This document shows positions 58,275 through 63,880 of a stretch of 64,000 nt of DNA, piece by piece. Position numbers and translations under genes: made by a program. The notes under the pieces are model-generated. The model saw only the letters and a list, made by a program, of their open reading frames with translations, ran no database searches and had not been told where the DNA came from. This stretch comes from an uncultured delta proteobacterium (lineage in GTDB: Bacteria; Desulfobacterota; Binatia; UBA9968). The first letter of the stretch is position 1. The number at the start of each line of letters is the position of its first letter. The stretch lies in the NCBI GenBank assembly GCA_963728565.1, contig CAVSLC010000010.1:267978-331977 (forward strand), given 5' to 3'.

Positions 58275-59663
58275 TTATCCGGGCAGGAAATCTTCCAGAC
58301 GAACCGTTTCCCATCCCATGGGTTTTAGCCGTTGAAAAGGCTGGCGCGCCTGTTCGCCGGCGCAAAGCGGCGGCTTGGTGGCGTCGATGATCACTTTGCC
58401 GCCGACCCGGTGCCAGTACGGTCCTCCCGGCGGCACGGGCTCGACACCGGTCGGATCCATCGGATGAATGCGAGTTCCGGGAATGACGATGATGTCGTCT
58501 TGCGGGTTGCAGCGCGTATTGATCGCCCAGAGAACTTCCCAGTAGTTAAAAATATTGACGTCTTCATCGACCGCGATGGCCACCTTCGGGTGCAGGATCG
58601 GACTCGATAGAACCCCCATTAAAATTTGTTTAGCCTCGCCGTAGAAGCGCGGCGTCATTTGCACGACGATGCCGAACAAGCCGGGTAGCACCAGAAGATT
58701 GTGCAAATTGACATAGCCGCCGATGTTTTTGATGTGATTGTAGACCGCGACGCCGAAAGGAACTTTGTGAAAGATGCAGCCTTCGACCTCCGAGCCATTC
58801 TGGATCGCTTTGAAGATTGCATCGTGGCGTCTGGTGATGCAATCGATCTCTATCACCGGATTTTTCCCCATGCCGGCGACGTAGTAATCATGGAATTCGG
58901 AAAAAGGCCCTTCGTCTTCGCGCACGTTTGGCAGAATGCGTCCTTCAAGAATGATCTCCGCATCGAACGGCACTTCGAGATCGTTGGTCTCGCATTTCAC
59001 CACCCTGGCGGATTCCCCGATCAGGCCGCCGGCCAATTCCAGCTCATCCATTTCGAACGCGCCGGTGCTGGCCGCGGCCATATAGTAAAGCGGATGGTGG
59101 CCGATAAAAATAGAAACCGGCATGGCCTGATTGCGCGCTTCATGCTTGTTGAGAATTTCTCGGGTGTGCCGCGGCACAATCAAAGCCCCGGTTTTTCTCG
59201 GCCCTTTGATCTGCAAACGATGGAAGGCGACGTTGCGGATACCGCTGTCCGGATCCCGCGCAACCATCAATCCGGATGCGATGTAGGGAGTCTCTTCACT
59301 GCCTGCTACATGCGCCGGCAACTCGGTCAGATCGACTTGATCGCCCTTCAGGATGACTTCCTTGACGGGACCGCTCGAGACCAGCTCGACGGGGCATCGT
59401 TTGAGAGTTCGTTCGGCGGCGCTGGGAATTAATTCTTCAATGGTGGTATCGAAGGCAATCGCCGCATGGCGCAAGTTGGCGGGGGCCATGCCCAGGCTGC
59501 GCCACCCCGGAAAGCCGTCGAGGTTTTCGAACAGCAAGCCTTTCTCACGCGACTGATATAGCAGCGCGCCCATTTGCGTGTGCGGATGTACCGGTTTGGC
59601 GATACGAATGAGCTCGCCCGCTTCTTCCAATTGCTTAATCCAACTGCGCATATCTCTCGACAT
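58275..59663 (-). CDS. Second UbiD-family decarboxylase
   Basis: DMRSWI..LE..GEL, RNVAFHRLQ, EGPFSEFHDYY, IAVDEDVNI and IIDATKP. Confidence 0.92.
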   Translation of the reverse strand: MSRDMRSWIKQLEEAGELIRIAKPVHPHTQMGALLYQSREKGLLFENLDGFPGWRSLGMAPANLRHAAIAFDTTIEELIPSAAERTLKRCPVELVSSGPVKEVILKGDQVDLTELPAHVAGSEETPYIASGLMVARDPDSGIRNVAFHRLQIKGPRKTGALIVPRHTREILNKHEARNQAMPVSIFIGHHPLYYMAAASTGAFEMDELELAGGLIGESARVVKCETNDLEVPFDAEIILEGRILPNVREDEGPFSEFHDYYVAGMGKNPVIEIDCITRRHDAIFKAIQNGSEVEGCIFHKVPFGVAVYNHIKNIGGYVNLHNLLVLPGLFGIVVQMTPRFYGEAKQILMGVLSSPILHPKVAIAVDEDVNIFNYWEVLWAINTRCNPQDDIIVIPGTRIHPMDPTGVEPVPPGGPYWHRVGGKVIIDATKPPLCAGEQARQPFQRLKPMGWETVRLEDFLPG

Positions 59664-59774
59664 TGTTGTCCTCGCGCCTTCGAAATCTCAGAGTTGAATC
59701 GGCTTCTGCGTTTCAGCCGCCAGCTTCTCGGTTCTGTCCCATTGGAGCTGTCGTTAGCTGCTGCGTAACCTGGA

Positions 59775-60800
59775 TCATTGCGGCTTGCCGTTGCCATAGA
59801 GTTTCTTCACAAAAGATGATGCTTCAATCTTCTTTAAGAAAGAGTGGTCGATAAAATCTTCGGCGCGTTGAGCGTTAGCCTCCGCTGAACTGGAGAAGTT
59901 CAGCACGCCCTGAACCGAGTCGGATGAAACATAGGGCACACGTTGTTGAAAAGCGGGGAGAAAGGTCTCGTAGGTGACCTTGAGCGCCTCGGGGTCGGCG
60001 ATCTGAGTGTACTTGGCGATCGCCTTGATTCCGACATCCGGTTGTTCTCGGGTCATTTTCATCGCCTCGATATAGGCTTTGAGAAAGGCGTCGACACTTT
60101 CTGGATTATTCTTGGCGAAGGCGCGGTTTACCCCGATAGCGGTATGGATATAGCTGAGGTTGAGCGCGCCGAGGTCGATCAGCTCTTTGTAGCCCATCTT
60201 TCTGGCGCGCAAGGTTGTCGGTGCCGACAGCGTCGTCGCATCGACGATGCCTTTTTCCAGAGCGCCTAGTTGCGGCACGGGTCCGCCGAGATAAACCGAG
60301 CTCACGTCTTTGCCGAGAGTCAAACCGAACTGTTTCAGGGCAATGATCGTGGCCAGTTCGATGGAGCCGCCCTTAGCATCCACCGCAACGGTTTTTCCTT
60401 TGAGATCTTCGGGACGGGTGATTTCCGAACGTGAATAAATAGAGAAAATCAGGTGATTGGATGTGCTGGCGATGTAGGCAATGCCGGCGCCGCGAATCGC
60501 GCCTTCCACGAGAGCGCCGCCGAGGGCGGCGATCGGCGCCGTGCCCGCGACCAGCATCTGCGCCGCGGCTGGCCCGGTACCGCGGAGCAAAAGCAACTCC
60601 TTTACTCCCAGGCCATGCTTTTTGAACAAGCCCTGTTCCTGCGCGACGTACAGCGGCGTCATGACGCCGCTCGGGGATGCATAGCCGATGGCGATGTCGT
60701 CCTGTCTTGCCTGGCCTCGCGCGGCTTCAGCGGCAATCGCCACACAGATCACAACCAAGAAGATGATGCCGGCGGTGCGTTTGTCACGATCGGTAAACAT
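59775..60800 (-). CDS. ABC substrate-binding protein, NMT1/SsuA-like
   Basis: Signal peptide, PLYVAQEQGLFKKHGL, DLKGKTVAV and FIDHSFL. Confidence 0.85.
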   Translation of the reverse strand: MFTDRDKRTAGIIFLVVICVAIAAEAARGQARQDDIAIGYASPSGVMTPLYVAQEQGLFKKHGLGVKELLLLRGTGPAAAQMLVAGTAPIAALGGALVEGAIRGAGIAYIASTSNHLIFSIYSRSEITRPEDLKGKTVAVDAKGGSIELATIIALKQFGLTLGKDVSSVYLGGPVPQLGALEKGIVDATTLSAPTTLRARKMGYKELIDLGALNLSYIHTAIGVNRAFAKNNPESVDAFLKAYIEAMKMTREQPDVGIKAIAKYTQIADPEALKVTYETFLPAFQQRVPYVSSDSVQGVLNFSSSAEANAQRAEDFIDHSFLKKIEASSFVKKLYGNGKPQ

Positions 60801-60936
60801 TGTTCCTCCTCAAGGCTGGTGAAACGGCCTTGCAAGAAGCGACGGACCCAGGGCAGACGATGTCAACCTGAGTAGCTCTGGGTTCCGACGGGAAAGCAAT
60901 CGGGAGTTTCCAGAAAGCTCTCAGGGTCCCGCCTGG

Positions 60937-61293
60937 CTAACGGGCGGAGCGGATCTCCATCTCCAGCCCGTGCGGATCCTGTACAAAAATAGTTGTGAGC
61001 TTGCCTGACTGATCACGATTTTCGCGCAGGATTCGCGCGTTCTTTGCTTTGAATTCTTTTGCCGCCTGCTCGATATCATCGCTGATGAACCCGTAGTGGT
61101 GTACGCCGGTTTTGTCGGACGATTCCATTAGTTGTATCGATGGCGCGCCATCGATAGTCACAAAACAGAACGAGTAACCCGCGGCGCCTTTTCTGATAGC
61201 GGTGGGCTGACCGCCGAAGTGCGCTCGATAAAACTCGATCGATTCATTGATATCTTTGCAATAGATCGCGACATGCTCCAATCGATTGCTCAT
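60937..61293 (-). CDS. VOC/glyoxalase family protein
   Basis: EHVAI...D..ESIEFY, HHYGF..DDI and F..DP.G..MEI. Confidence 0.88.
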   Translation of the reverse strand: MSNRLEHVAIYCKDINESIEFYRAHFGGQPTAIRKGAAGYSFCFVTIDGAPSIQLMESSDKTGVHHYGFISDDIEQAAKEFKAKNARILRENRDQSGKLTTIFVQDPHGLEMEIRSAR

Positions 61294-61333
61294 AGATTTC
61301 TCCTTAATTCAGCGATTGGTGGTTAATATCTTG

Positions 61334-61455
61334 CAGGCTGCTCACAAGATCCAAAGACAAGTTACAAGCCTGAAGACGGAAATCTGAAAGGGAAATTTCA
61401 AATTTTCAGCTTTCATAACTCATCCTTCAAAGCATAGGATTTTTTCAGCGGCCTG
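61334..61455. mobile_element. Putative MITE-like element of about 122 bp with imperfect terminal inverted repeats
   Basis: Left end CAGGCTGCTCACAAGATCC versus reverse complement of the right end CAGGCCGCTGAAAAAATCC (15/19); AT-rich interior with TTTCA-type repeats at about 7-nt spacing. Confidence 0.5.
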
Positions 61456-62385
61456 TCAGAATCCGAGTTTCTGTGCGTTCAAATAATAAATTTTCTGTTT
61501 ATCACTGTCTGGAATATCGAGCTTCGACATCGCCGCTAAAGTCATCGGATAGAACTGATCGTCGCGGCCGCCTCTCCCGTGCGGGTAATCGGCGCCGAAC
61601 AGGATCTGGTCGGGACCGACGGTGTCGTAGACGAGCTTGATGAATTCGGCGCGGATCGGACCGGCGGTATCGTAGTAGATCTTTGTAAAGTATTCCTCCG
61701 GCTCCCGCCGGCACTCTACATTTCCCTCGCGCCAGTTGAGCCGGTCGAGGTAAAGCAGAATCATGCCGCCAAGATGCGAGGCAATGAGCTTGATGGCCGG
61801 ATAGCGATCGAATACACCGCTATAAACGATGCGCGATATCGCCAGAGAGCTGTCGGTGGGCCAGAGGAGCTTCTGGTGCAGCGAATATTTGTTCCAATTG
61901 GTTTGGCATGGCGCATTGGCCGGATGAAGAAACAGCGGTTTTCCACCTGCCGCGAGCGCGTCCCAGAAGGGTTTGAATTCCGGCTCGTCGAGGTATTTTC
62001 CGGCCAGATTGGTCGACAGGATCACGCCATGCATCTTGAGATCGCGGTAACACCGTTCGAGCTCCCGCACACAATCATCAAGGTTGACCATCGGCAAACG
62101 GGCAAACGCTTTGAAGCGGCGCGGGTGCTTTGCGTGGGCTTCGGCAAATGCGTCGTTGATGATGGTGCACAGCTCCAGCGCCTTGCGCCGGTCGCCTCCG
62201 TGTTCGATTCGCCCGCCGGTATTGGAGAGCACGCCGACATCGATGCCGTGTTGATCCATCACATTGAGGTATTCCTGATGGTCAAAGCCGTGGAATCCCA
62301 CTCCGCGAACGTCGCTTTGTGATTGCTCGGGCACGAGTTCGAGAAATTTCTTTGGAAAGGCATGAAAGTGCGTATCGATAATCAT
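61456..62385 (-). CDS. Amidohydrolase-2 family protein (ACMSD/LigW-like decarboxylase or hydratase)
   Basis: IDTHFH, LFLHP, SHLGG, YYDT and LFGADYPH. Confidence 0.88.
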   Translation of the reverse strand: MIIDTHFHAFPKKFLELVPEQSQSDVRGVGFHGFDHQEYLNVMDQHGIDVGVLSNTGGRIEHGGDRRKALELCTIINDAFAEAHAKHPRRFKAFARLPMVNLDDCVRELERCYRDLKMHGVILSTNLAGKYLDEPEFKPFWDALAAGGKPLFLHPANAPCQTNWNKYSLHQKLLWPTDSSLAISRIVYSGVFDRYPAIKLIASHLGGMILLYLDRLNWREGNVECRREPEEYFTKIYYDTAGPIRAEFIKLVYDTVGPDQILFGADYPHGRGGRDDQFYPMTLAAMSKLDIPDSDKQKIYYLNAQKLGF

Positions 62386-62597
62386 GCGGCCTCCTCCAGC
62401 TAGCTAACTGCCGGCGCGACGCAGAGTGAAAAGTTATTCCAGTAAAGGTTTATATGGCCGCTTATCGCATAGCGTAGGCGGGTGTCAACCGATGTGCCCG
62501 CGCATCCAATTGCTAAGATGCGGCGCTAAACCACTTTGAGAGAAGAAGTCGCTCTATGTCGGGGAGTCCAAAAAATTCTTGCGATCAATCAGCAATG

Positions 62598-62626
62598 TTG
62601 CCGCCGCGGCTCTCAGGTGGTACAAG
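62598..62626 (+). promoter_or_regulatory. Candidate sigma70 promoter for the GST gene
   Basis: TTGCCG-17 nt-TACAAG with an extended -10 TG. Confidence 0.4.
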
Positions 62627-62648
62627 GCCATCAGATGGAGGTGACGTC

Positions 62649-63209
62649 ATGAAGCTCTTTTCTTACGGCCCCTGACCCTACGCTCACAGGACAAGGCTTG
62701 TCCTGGCGGAAAAAAAGATTCCCTATGATCTGATCGAATGCGACCTCGGCAACAAGCCCAAAGATCTTCTCGAGTTAAATCCTTACGGCAAAGTTCCTGT
62801 GCTGGTCGATGGTGATGCGGTTGTTTACGAGTCCGCGATTATCGACGAGTACCTGGAAGAACAGTATCCCGAGGCGCCGTTGATGCCCAAAGACCCACTG
62901 GCCCGAGCGCGCATAAGAATTTGGATCGATTACTGCAACACCCGCGTGCAGCGCGCCGCCGGTTATATCGCCCACAACTACAAAGTCGAAGAGTCTGGAA
63001 CGGAGCTTCGAACGTACCTCGAGAATCTGAATCGACAGATGCAAGGGCGAGAGTACATAGCCGATGGATACTCTCTCGCGGATATCACTTACATTCCTTT
63101 CTTCGTCAGACGCGAGCGTTATCAGGTAAGCATTGGTGATGACTTGCCGCACGTCAAAGCTTGGATGGAGCGTTTGCTCGAGCGGCCCGCGGTGCGCGCG
63201 ACGCCGTAA
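62649..63209 (+). CDS. Glutathione S-transferase (omega/Cys-GST-like), probable selenoprotein with Sec at codon 9, 186 aa
   Basis: GGAGGTG RBS, then MKLFSYGP-UGA-PYAHRTRLVLAEKKIPY..LNPYGKVPVL..ESAII.EYL, in frame with track ORF 62799-63209. Confidence 0.85.
62681..62708 (+). promoter_or_regulatory. Putative bacterial SECIS hairpin
   Basis: CGC-TCA-CAGGACAA-GGC-TTGTCCTG-GCG: 8-bp perfect stem with a G-starting loop 19 nt after the UGA at 62673-62675. Confidence 0.7.
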
Positions 63210-63523
63210 TCGGCTGGCGGAGAGTCTCTGAGCTCAAATATCGGGGCTCAGCGGTCAAAGAGGGACTTGTCTGCTAAGTGACAAAAAGCATGCAAACGCG
63301 GTCTCAATGGCTTGATAGTGCCTCCGCGAACTGCAAAAACTGCCTAAGCTGCTGCTTGCATGCAGCAGCTTCATCGATCGAAATATTTTGTATCAATTCG
63401 CTACGGCGGTGCTGTTTGGCAGCGCTAAAGAGCTTCACAGAAGCTGTTTCTAAAGCGCAATTTGCCGCCTTAAGCTAAAGTTTTTGTTGCTTAAGATACA
63501 ATCTTGGTTTAATTTGTCCCGGC

Positions 63524-63880
63524 ATGTCGTGTAATCTGCTTCTGGTTGAAGACAACCCCTTGTCCCGCCGGAACCTGGCAATGTTTCTTCAGCAAGCCGA
63601 ATTCACGGTTCACCAGACCGACAATGGCGAGGCTGCGTTAGAGCTTATTTCCCGGGTCGATTTTGACATCGTCATCTCTGACTTTCGTCTGCCGGGAAAG
63701 GTGAACGGCCTAGATGTCCTAAAGTATCAAAGTTGTAGGGGTTCGGGAAAACGTCTCATTCTCATTACTGCGTTCGGTTCCGAGCAAGCTCAAGCAGAAG
63801 CCGCAGCGGTAGGCGCGCTTTACTTCGAAAAGCCGATCTCTTTGCGCGATCTGCTTGATACAATTCAGTTTACGCATTAA
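63524..63880 (+). CDS. Single-domain response regulator receiver
   Basis: LLVED, DIVISD..LP..NG, LITAFG and EKP. Confidence 0.88.
   Translation: MSCNLLLVEDNPLSRRNLAMFLQQAEFTVHQTDNGEAALELISRVDFDIVISDFRLPGKVNGLDVLKYQSCRGSGKRLILITAFGSEQAQAEAAAVGALYFEKPISLRDLLDTIQFTH

Follow-up and report, generated by a model that had tools for sequence, protein, structure and literature searches.

A predicted selenocysteine-containing glutathione S-transferase and its conserved UGA-proximal hairpin in an order of soil Binatia

The stretch of DNA considered here (the window) comprises 64,000 nucleotides (nt) from an uncultured delta proteobacterium of the Binatia lineage UBA9968 (GenBank assembly GCA_963728565.1, contig CAVSLC010000010.1, positions 267,978 to 331,977), and its gene at 62649–63209 on the forward strand very probably encodes a complete, 186-residue glutathione S-transferase (GST) of the cytosolic type, whose catalytic residue, judging from sequence comparison, would be selenocysteine (Sec, U) in the motif U-P-Y-A. 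When translated with TGA as U, the coding sequence consists of 186 codons plus a TAA. The ATG start codon, read directly in the sequence, occupies positions 62649–62651 and follows, at a distance of 5 nt, a Shine-Dalgarno-like GGAGGTG (62637–62643) that is recognizable from the sequence alone. Codon 9 is an in-frame TGA (62673–62675), beyond which the GST frame stays open until the TAA at 63207–63209. The resulting N-terminus reads MKLFSYGP-U-PYAHRTRLVLAEKK, with U9 lying in the motif G-P-U-P-Y-A directly N-terminal to helix alpha-1, and the product matches the Pfam domains GST_N_2 (2.5e-21), GST_N_3, GST_N and GST_C (5.5e-9). The ATG, the TGA and the complete GST frame had all been recognized in an initial annotation of this DNA and are read identically here; the Shine-Dalgarno motif that it reported is also present, one base to the left of the place it implied. 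A scan of 62300–63600 for promoters and terminators returned none above shuffle expectation.

Conservation of the UGA codon is the first line of evidence. A six-frame search was carried out on 41 genomes of the same order, spanning three families and 22 genera and including the genome of the window (G000), and in 39 of them an orthologue match of 54–99% identity was found with exactly one TGA. The two exceptions are G010, in which the contig begins at codon 24 so that the UGA codon is unreadable, and G036 (93% complete), in which only paralogues of at most 43% identity were found. Forty loci from 37 genomes were then fetched (G008, G034 and G012 were left out), and TGA stands at the identical codon, preceding P-[YF]-A-H-R-T-R, in 39/39 readable loci from 36 genomes, the 40th being the cut contig of G010. 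Two of the genomes, G012 and G018, are flagged as unpublished, and without them the count of orthologues with one TGA becomes 37/39; G018 (locus L029) contributes one row to the alignments, codon counts and tree, G012 enters only the six-frame tallies, and no claim made here depends on either. A phylum-wide search of 301 genomes (E ≤1e-45) recovered orthologues in just two members of family f1, G000 and G015, and none, at the same threshold, in eight genomes from other orders of the same class or in the other genomes of the phylum that were sampled.

An exhaustive HMMER search of 1.84 billion representative sequences yielded 33 proteins at E ≤1e-30, and in the 17 full-length, stop-free matches that were aligned, the nearest full-length non-Sec homologues, the U column is occupied by Cys in 12 and by Ser in five. 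Cys-type counterparts with a C-P-[FY]-A active site, to which the initial annotation had appealed, do exist at 50–51% identity: P0122 (51%) carries R-C-P-F-A-H-R-T-R, and P0124 (50%) carries L-C-P-Y-A-L-R-T-R.

The second line of evidence is a putative Sec insertion sequence (SECIS), namely the hairpin CAGGACAA-GGC-TTGTCCTG at 62687–62705 on the forward strand, identified by folding and comparison. Its stem of 8 base pairs (bp), CAGGACAA/UUGUCCUG, begins after an 11-nt spacer, and its GGC triloop (62695–62697) starts 19 nt past the UGA, exactly where it had been noticed at the outset. The constraint on this element was assessed in a codon comparison set of 34 sequences with less than 95% nucleotide identity to each other. 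Among the 69 degenerate columns in which the amino acid is conserved, one codon is used throughout in only three (AGG for two Arg columns and GTC for a Val column), and all three lie within the hairpin, while five further conserved Arg columns outside it use four to six codons each. Mean codon entropy is 0.30 in the six hairpin columns vs 1.39 in the 63 others, and although the Mann-Whitney p = 8e-5 overstates independence because the sequences are related, the pattern is still stark. At the level of pairing, six stem pairs out of eight show no variation in any of the 34 sequences, pair 21-27 is kept in 28/34, and the closing pair in 30/34, with one U-A and one U-G among them; 21 sequences have a GGC loop and the other 13 a GGA loop. 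An additional CGC/GCG pairing proposed below the stem does form in the window and is not conserved, with its pair 9-36 present in 18/34 sequences and the other two fixed by Ala codons.

Changes on both sides of the stem are seen in a distant homologue with the motif U-P-F-A (L071), in which the N-terminal frame and the TGA were read and which is 57% identical over residues 2–112. Its hairpin, GAGGACGA-GGA-UCGUCCUC, contains two compensatory pairs (C-G to G-C and A-U to G-C) and keeps both the 11-nt spacer and the GG loop. The record concerned, CAZCWX010000199.1, is a contig of a metagenome-assembled genome (MAG) labelled ‘uncultured Enterobacteriaceae’, a label that looks doubtful for this gene family. 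Taken together, the 39 readable loci, the synonymous constraint and these compensatory pairs bear out the expectation that homologues would share both the UGA and the hairpin.

The reading also implied that a Sec machinery would be encoded elsewhere in the genome, and this is what was found in G000, an assembly of 4.53 Mb in 28 contigs that is 80.6% complete. The genes selA (607.5 bits), selB (395.7 bits) and selD (382.3 bits) are adjacent on C28:34981-39495 (loci L001, L003 and L005), and a tRNA-Sec gene lies on C25 (74.2 bits), called by ARAGORN as tRNA-SeC with anticodon tca; all four exceed their curated cut-offs. selD itself contains one in-frame TGA (...VKAAG-U-AAKLGP), which makes it a Sec-type selenophosphate synthetase and hence a selenoprotein in its own right; a Sec-type selD also occurs in four of the five relatives checked. 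The fold downstream of the selD TGA shows no hairpin obviously similar to that of the Sec-GST. A second match to the tRNA-Sec model was noticed at C23:157339-157424 (L013), with 47.3 bits vs a gathering score of 47, and probably represents a tRNA with a long arm, Ser or Leu for instance.

The protein model is in keeping with an intact GST. Modelled with AlphaFold2 from alignment A1, the protein adopts the GST fold with a mean predicted local distance difference test (pLDDT) score of 96.6 and a predicted template modelling (pTM) score of 0.92, and its secondary structure runs from a strand at residues 2–5 through U9 to a helix at residues 10–21. Foldseek gives a probability of 1.00 against many GSTs, which places the model, with its thioredoxin-like N-domain and helical C-domain, in the cytosolic GST superfamily; the top matches are glutathione-bound SspA-like, tau, omega and dehydroascorbate reductase (DHAR) structures, with template modelling (TM) scores of 0.82–0.92. 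In the GST fold, glutathione is bound by the Pro of a V-P motif after strand beta-3 and by an E-S motif before helix alpha-3, and the corresponding residues are present as V49-P50 and E61-S62; in alignment A1, P50 never varies and S62 hardly does.

How else might the UGA be understood? The alternative that survives best, itself highly improbable, is that the codon is read through as an ordinary amino acid, either Trp or Cys inserted by a near-cognate or suppressor tRNA or a residue assigned by a changed genetic code. Such a reading has been adopted, in effect, by one public gene call (P0001), in which the TGA is translated as W. TGA is, however, an ordinary stop elsewhere in the window, where it terminates 14 of 34 long open reading frames, so that the code is standard; the genome carries the complete Sec pathway described above, and the residue found at this position in homologues is a redox Cys. 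Moreover, the hairpin 11 nt downstream is under selection at the nucleotide level, which plain read-through would not require.

A second alternative, to which we give still less credence, holds that the UGA terminates translation and that the true product is an N-terminally truncated GST of 136–177 amino acids (aa) made from a downstream start. This is how the public databases present the family. In a word-indexed search of 5.8 billion proteins, 119 of the best 120 clusters measure 136–177 aa and cover 73–95% of the query, and the seven of these that were read all start downstream of the TGA; the sole full-length record is P0001, whose W at the TGA reflects a code-4-style call. Names met at NCBI include ‘glutathione S-transferase family protein’, with or without ‘partial’. 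Truncations of this kind are nevertheless the usual output of gene callers for any selenoprotein, and a protein begun so late would be missing not only the catalytic residue but also strand beta-1 and at least part of helix alpha-1, in a fold that is modelled with confidence. The residues that separate the TGA from the annotated starts (P-Y-A-H-R-T-R-[LI]-V-L-A-E-K) rank with the best conserved of the protein, and a start codon with its own Shine-Dalgarno site stands eight codons ahead of the TGA. If the full-length selenoprotein is the true product, a widespread clade of soil-bacterial GSTs is stored publicly without its first 9 to 50 residues, hence without its catalytic residue, and functional or structural inference from those shortened records is wrong.

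Independent soil assemblies bear on the last alternative. Contigs from four public soil sequencing runs were compared with the window over 62450–63350. X1, from DNA (record 1), covers 62450–63283 with 21 differences, all of them listed, of which none falls in 62596–62797. X15, a 712-nt soil metatranscriptome contig from an RNA library (record 3), covers 62590–63279 with 16 differences, again all listed, and none in 62647–62797, so that both contigs are identical to the window over the TGA and hairpin. Two further RNA-library contigs, X16 (record 7, 62642–62985) and X17 (record 9, 62572–62746), bridge the TGA, which is the sole claim made of them, as some of their differences were not displayed. 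The word shares of the sequencing runs, 0.19–0.42, indicate relatives or parts and not the same strain. The soil bacteria in which the gene sits carry the labels Deltaproteobacteria, Ca. Binatia or Syntrophobacteraceae. Taken alone, an early in-frame stop resembles a nonsense pseudogene, the outcome that the initial annotation had named beforehand as undoing its reading. That explanation, like an error of sequencing or assembly, is scarcely credible and, as far as sequence comparison reaches, refuted, given a TGA at one codon in 39/39 readable loci of 36 genomes at 54–99% identity with the remaining frame intact, the same TGA in soil contigs from both DNA and RNA libraries, and a paralogue in G000 itself with the same TGA and hairpin.

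Several observations nonetheless weigh against a Sec-GST, and they concern the hairpin, the machinery, the thiol and the RNA in turn. The hairpin alone folds no better than shuffled sequence (minimum free energy −13.4 kcal/mol, z = −1.17, with 30/200 shuffles folding at least as well), and it is by comparison, not by folding energy, that it stands out from chance. Since the stem is near-invariant within the order, covariation is confined to one distant homologue (L071) and one change of the closing pair, and an Rfam scan of 62550–62850 at E ≤10 returned no SECIS family, only two chance snoRNA matches. Regarding the machinery, G015 carries a TGA-containing GST and yet has no selD above the cut-off (best match 72 bits) in an assembly that is 100% complete by markers, in 240 contigs, where an assembly gap may account for the missing gene. 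With respect to the thiol, a search for the glutathione synthetase gene gshB failed to find it in G000 (80.6% complete, as noted), in which a GCS2-type glutamate-cysteine ligase is present, and in the complete, single-contig genomes G026 and G037 of family f3, both with a Sec-GST; gshB was found in G005, G015 and G025. Where gshB was not found, the identity of the thiol substrate is accordingly uncertain. Finally, the RNA-library contigs are a hint of transcription and not proof, as such libraries can hold DNA.

On balance, the selenoprotein reading suggests the following course of events. SelB charged with Sec-tRNA(Sec) would bind the apical part of the 8-bp, GG-loop hairpin 11 nt past the UGA, and Sec would be delivered at codon 9 in place of termination. 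The selenolate would then sit at the N-terminus of helix alpha-1, within the intact glutathione-binding site formed by V49-P50 and E61-S62. By analogy with the Cys-type GST classes, the enzyme would probably form a mixed selenosulfide with glutathione, and thiol-transfer, deglutathionylation and reductase steps appear likelier reactions than simple conjugation. The analysis itself shows the gene anatomy, the conservation of UGA and hairpin, the Sec machinery and the fold; the insertion of selenium, the SelB contact, the chemistry and the substrate are inferred.

The window gene is not the only one of its kind in G000. The paralogue mentioned above, at C13:52978-53529 (L058, L077), is 54% identical, reads SCHT-U-PYA and has the same hairpin with a GGA loop; within this genome the hairpin motif occurs only in these two Sec-GST genes. 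The tree places the window gene within an SYGP-U clade (support 84/91) and the paralogue within an SCHT-U clade (99/99). It does not resolve the backbone between the Sec clades, nor the place of P0122, the nearest homologue with Cys and a long branch, and neither direction of change, Cys-to-Sec or Sec-to-Cys, can be assigned from it. Genes of the SCHT type lie directly after genes for Opp/Dpp-type ATP-binding cassette (ABC) permeases (BPD_transp_1 and OppC_N), with a DUF3105 gene on their 3' side in three relatives (L069, L073 and L076), and may be linked to the import of peptides or glutathione. A third Sec clade, HWPT-U-PWC, with a U-x-x-C motif, is represented in the relatives L083 (G009), L084 (G017) and L085 (G033) and, by six-frame tally, in the unpublished G012; its hairpin differs, being AGUGCG-GAU-CGCACU with the loop 20 nt past the UGA.

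It is tempting to combine these observations into an order-wide selenoenzyme system of soil bacteria, that is, a radiation specific to this lineage, comprising as many as three Sec-GST clades (SYGP-U-PYA, SCHT-U-PYA and HWPT-U-PWC), each with its own hairpin, arisen independently of the marine examples discussed below and with one clade tied to an ABC importer of the peptide/glutathione type. This broader proposal is a tentative one and, at present, rather doubtful. If true, it would amount to an undescribed, selenium-dependent use of imported glutathione or another thiol, some of the hosts being seemingly without glutathione synthetase.

The genomic surroundings say little about function. Upstream of the GST, a divergent run on the reverse strand (58275–62385) comprises a UbiD-like decarboxylase (462 aa), an NMT1/THI5-like binding protein (341 aa), a glyoxalase-fold protein (118 aa) and an amidohydrolase_2 protein (309 aa), and downstream, on the forward strand, lies a single-domain response-regulator receiver (118 aa, 63524–63880). 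These neighbours were searched for by tblastn in 35 orthologue loci, some of which are one contig fetched twice, as a genome locus and as a named record. They stand beside the GST in nine loci only, from the same genus (L021-L027) and from near-identical named MAG contigs (L060-L065), and were not detected by tblastn beside it in the other 26. The suggestion of the initial annotation that the enzyme serves the divergently transcribed catabolic cluster consequently lacks support, as synteny reaches only same-genus and near-identical contigs.

When the hairpin is set beside known elements, the closest in kind is the E. coli fdhF-type SECIS, likewise a stem-loop inside the coding region, directly downstream of the UGA, whose apical loop opens with a G. 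A spacing of 11 nt, the same figure as the spacer here, is said to have been found necessary for the minimal fdhF element by Liu et al. in 1998. In contrast to the fdhF type, the hairpin described here has a perfect 8-bp stem and a 3-nt GG[CA] loop and is without a bulged U. Near-invariant over its 19 nt and at a spacing of 11 nt, it would offer a compact and well-defined SECIS for work on recognition by SelB.

Classification of the protein among the GSTs has to take account of several partial likenesses. In a sequence search of the PDB, the best-ranking homologues are SspA-like (6v91 and 4qq7), followed by the tau GST 7dwf and then by human GSTO1, and U9 is matched by Cys in 6v91 and 4qq7 and by Ser in 7dwf. 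The SspA-like GSTs with bound glutathione (4qq7, 6v91 and 4hoj) give the best sequence match, with E ~5e-30, and best-fold TM scores of 0.82–0.87, and in the SspA-like proteins of Burkholderia a C-P-F-S motif aligns with U-P-Y-A. Assignment as an SspA equivalog was considered and rejected, the score being 109.9 bits vs the cut-off of 314 of NCBIfam NF007016, and we know of no Sec form of SspA. SspA is nevertheless the best match within NCBIfam, far under its cut-off as just given; NCBIfam has no model dedicated to a selenoprotein GST, and its Uxx-star glutaredoxin-like selenoprotein models give only trace matches (20–27 bits vs cut-offs of 66–97). The omega GST of humans, GSTO1 (PDB 1eem), and other Cys-type GSTs (lambda, DHAR and CLIC) resemble the protein in that their C-P-[FY]-A corresponds to U-P-Y-A at the start of helix alpha-1. 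The match to GSTO1 (phmmer E = 1.5e-23) joins residues 2–184 of the query to 25–214 of the chain, and U9 would then correspond to residue 32, which we take to be the catalytic Cys32 provided that the phmmer alignment is ungapped. Omega-class enzymes have an N-terminal extension of about 20 residues that packs against a C-terminal extension. GSTO1 has 241 aa with such terminal extensions and a sulfur nucleophile, whereas the protein described here has 186 aa, neither N- nor C-terminal extension, its catalytic residue at position 9 and, by prediction, selenium as nucleophile; it is also closer in sequence to the SspA-like and tau GSTs. Membership of the omega class, towards which the first reading leaned, is for these reasons rejected, and the description that suits the protein best is a short GST of the Cys type in which Sec replaces Cys.

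Finally, a family of selenoproteins to which the gene belongs has been on record for some time. The Sargasso Sea study (Zhang, Fomenko & Gladyshev 2005) lists GST among its new selenoprotein families, with four sequences (COG0625, PMC1088965), and the Global Ocean Sampling (GOS) study of 2008 counts 12 Sec GST sequences vs 1,036 Cys homologues (PMC2398784). The study of the Olavius symbionts gives the Sec form of GST as ‘not detected’ (PMC1976440), and reviews of 2022 (PMC9312934) and 2026 (PMC13188914) list the family as ‘GST-like’, naming no motif in their text, the latter adding that nearly all such families are bioinformatic finds and functionally uncharacterised. No bench study of a natural Sec-GST was found in the literature searched. 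Three GSTs considered from outside the order, the marine gammaproteobacterial L072 and L075 and the Myxococcales L074, proved to be non-Sec GSTs of 26–27% identity, which give no help in connecting this gene to the marine Sec-GSTs. The order includes genomes assembled into one or two contigs, and if there are cultured strains behind them, the advantage of Sec over Cys in a GST could be tested there.

By the published description of the family, the gene falls within its definition, and it is set beside the marine examples by that family description only (PMC1088965). The two are alike in being GSTs (COG0625/PF13409) with an in-frame UGA and a downstream bacterial SECIS, predicted computationally, and since the gene belongs to a catalogued family of such predictions, listed since 2005, knowledge in kind is unchanged. 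What is added here is the order-wide conservation of the UGA, the quantified synonymous-site constraint on the hairpin, the compensatory changes in a distant homologue, the 11-nt spacer, the two to three paralogous Sec clades and the scale of the mis-annotation. In contrast to the published GST-like records, which come from marine metagenomes, the gene described here is from soil bacteria, is near-universal in one order (39/41 genomes) and is accompanied by one or two further Sec clades of paralogous origin.

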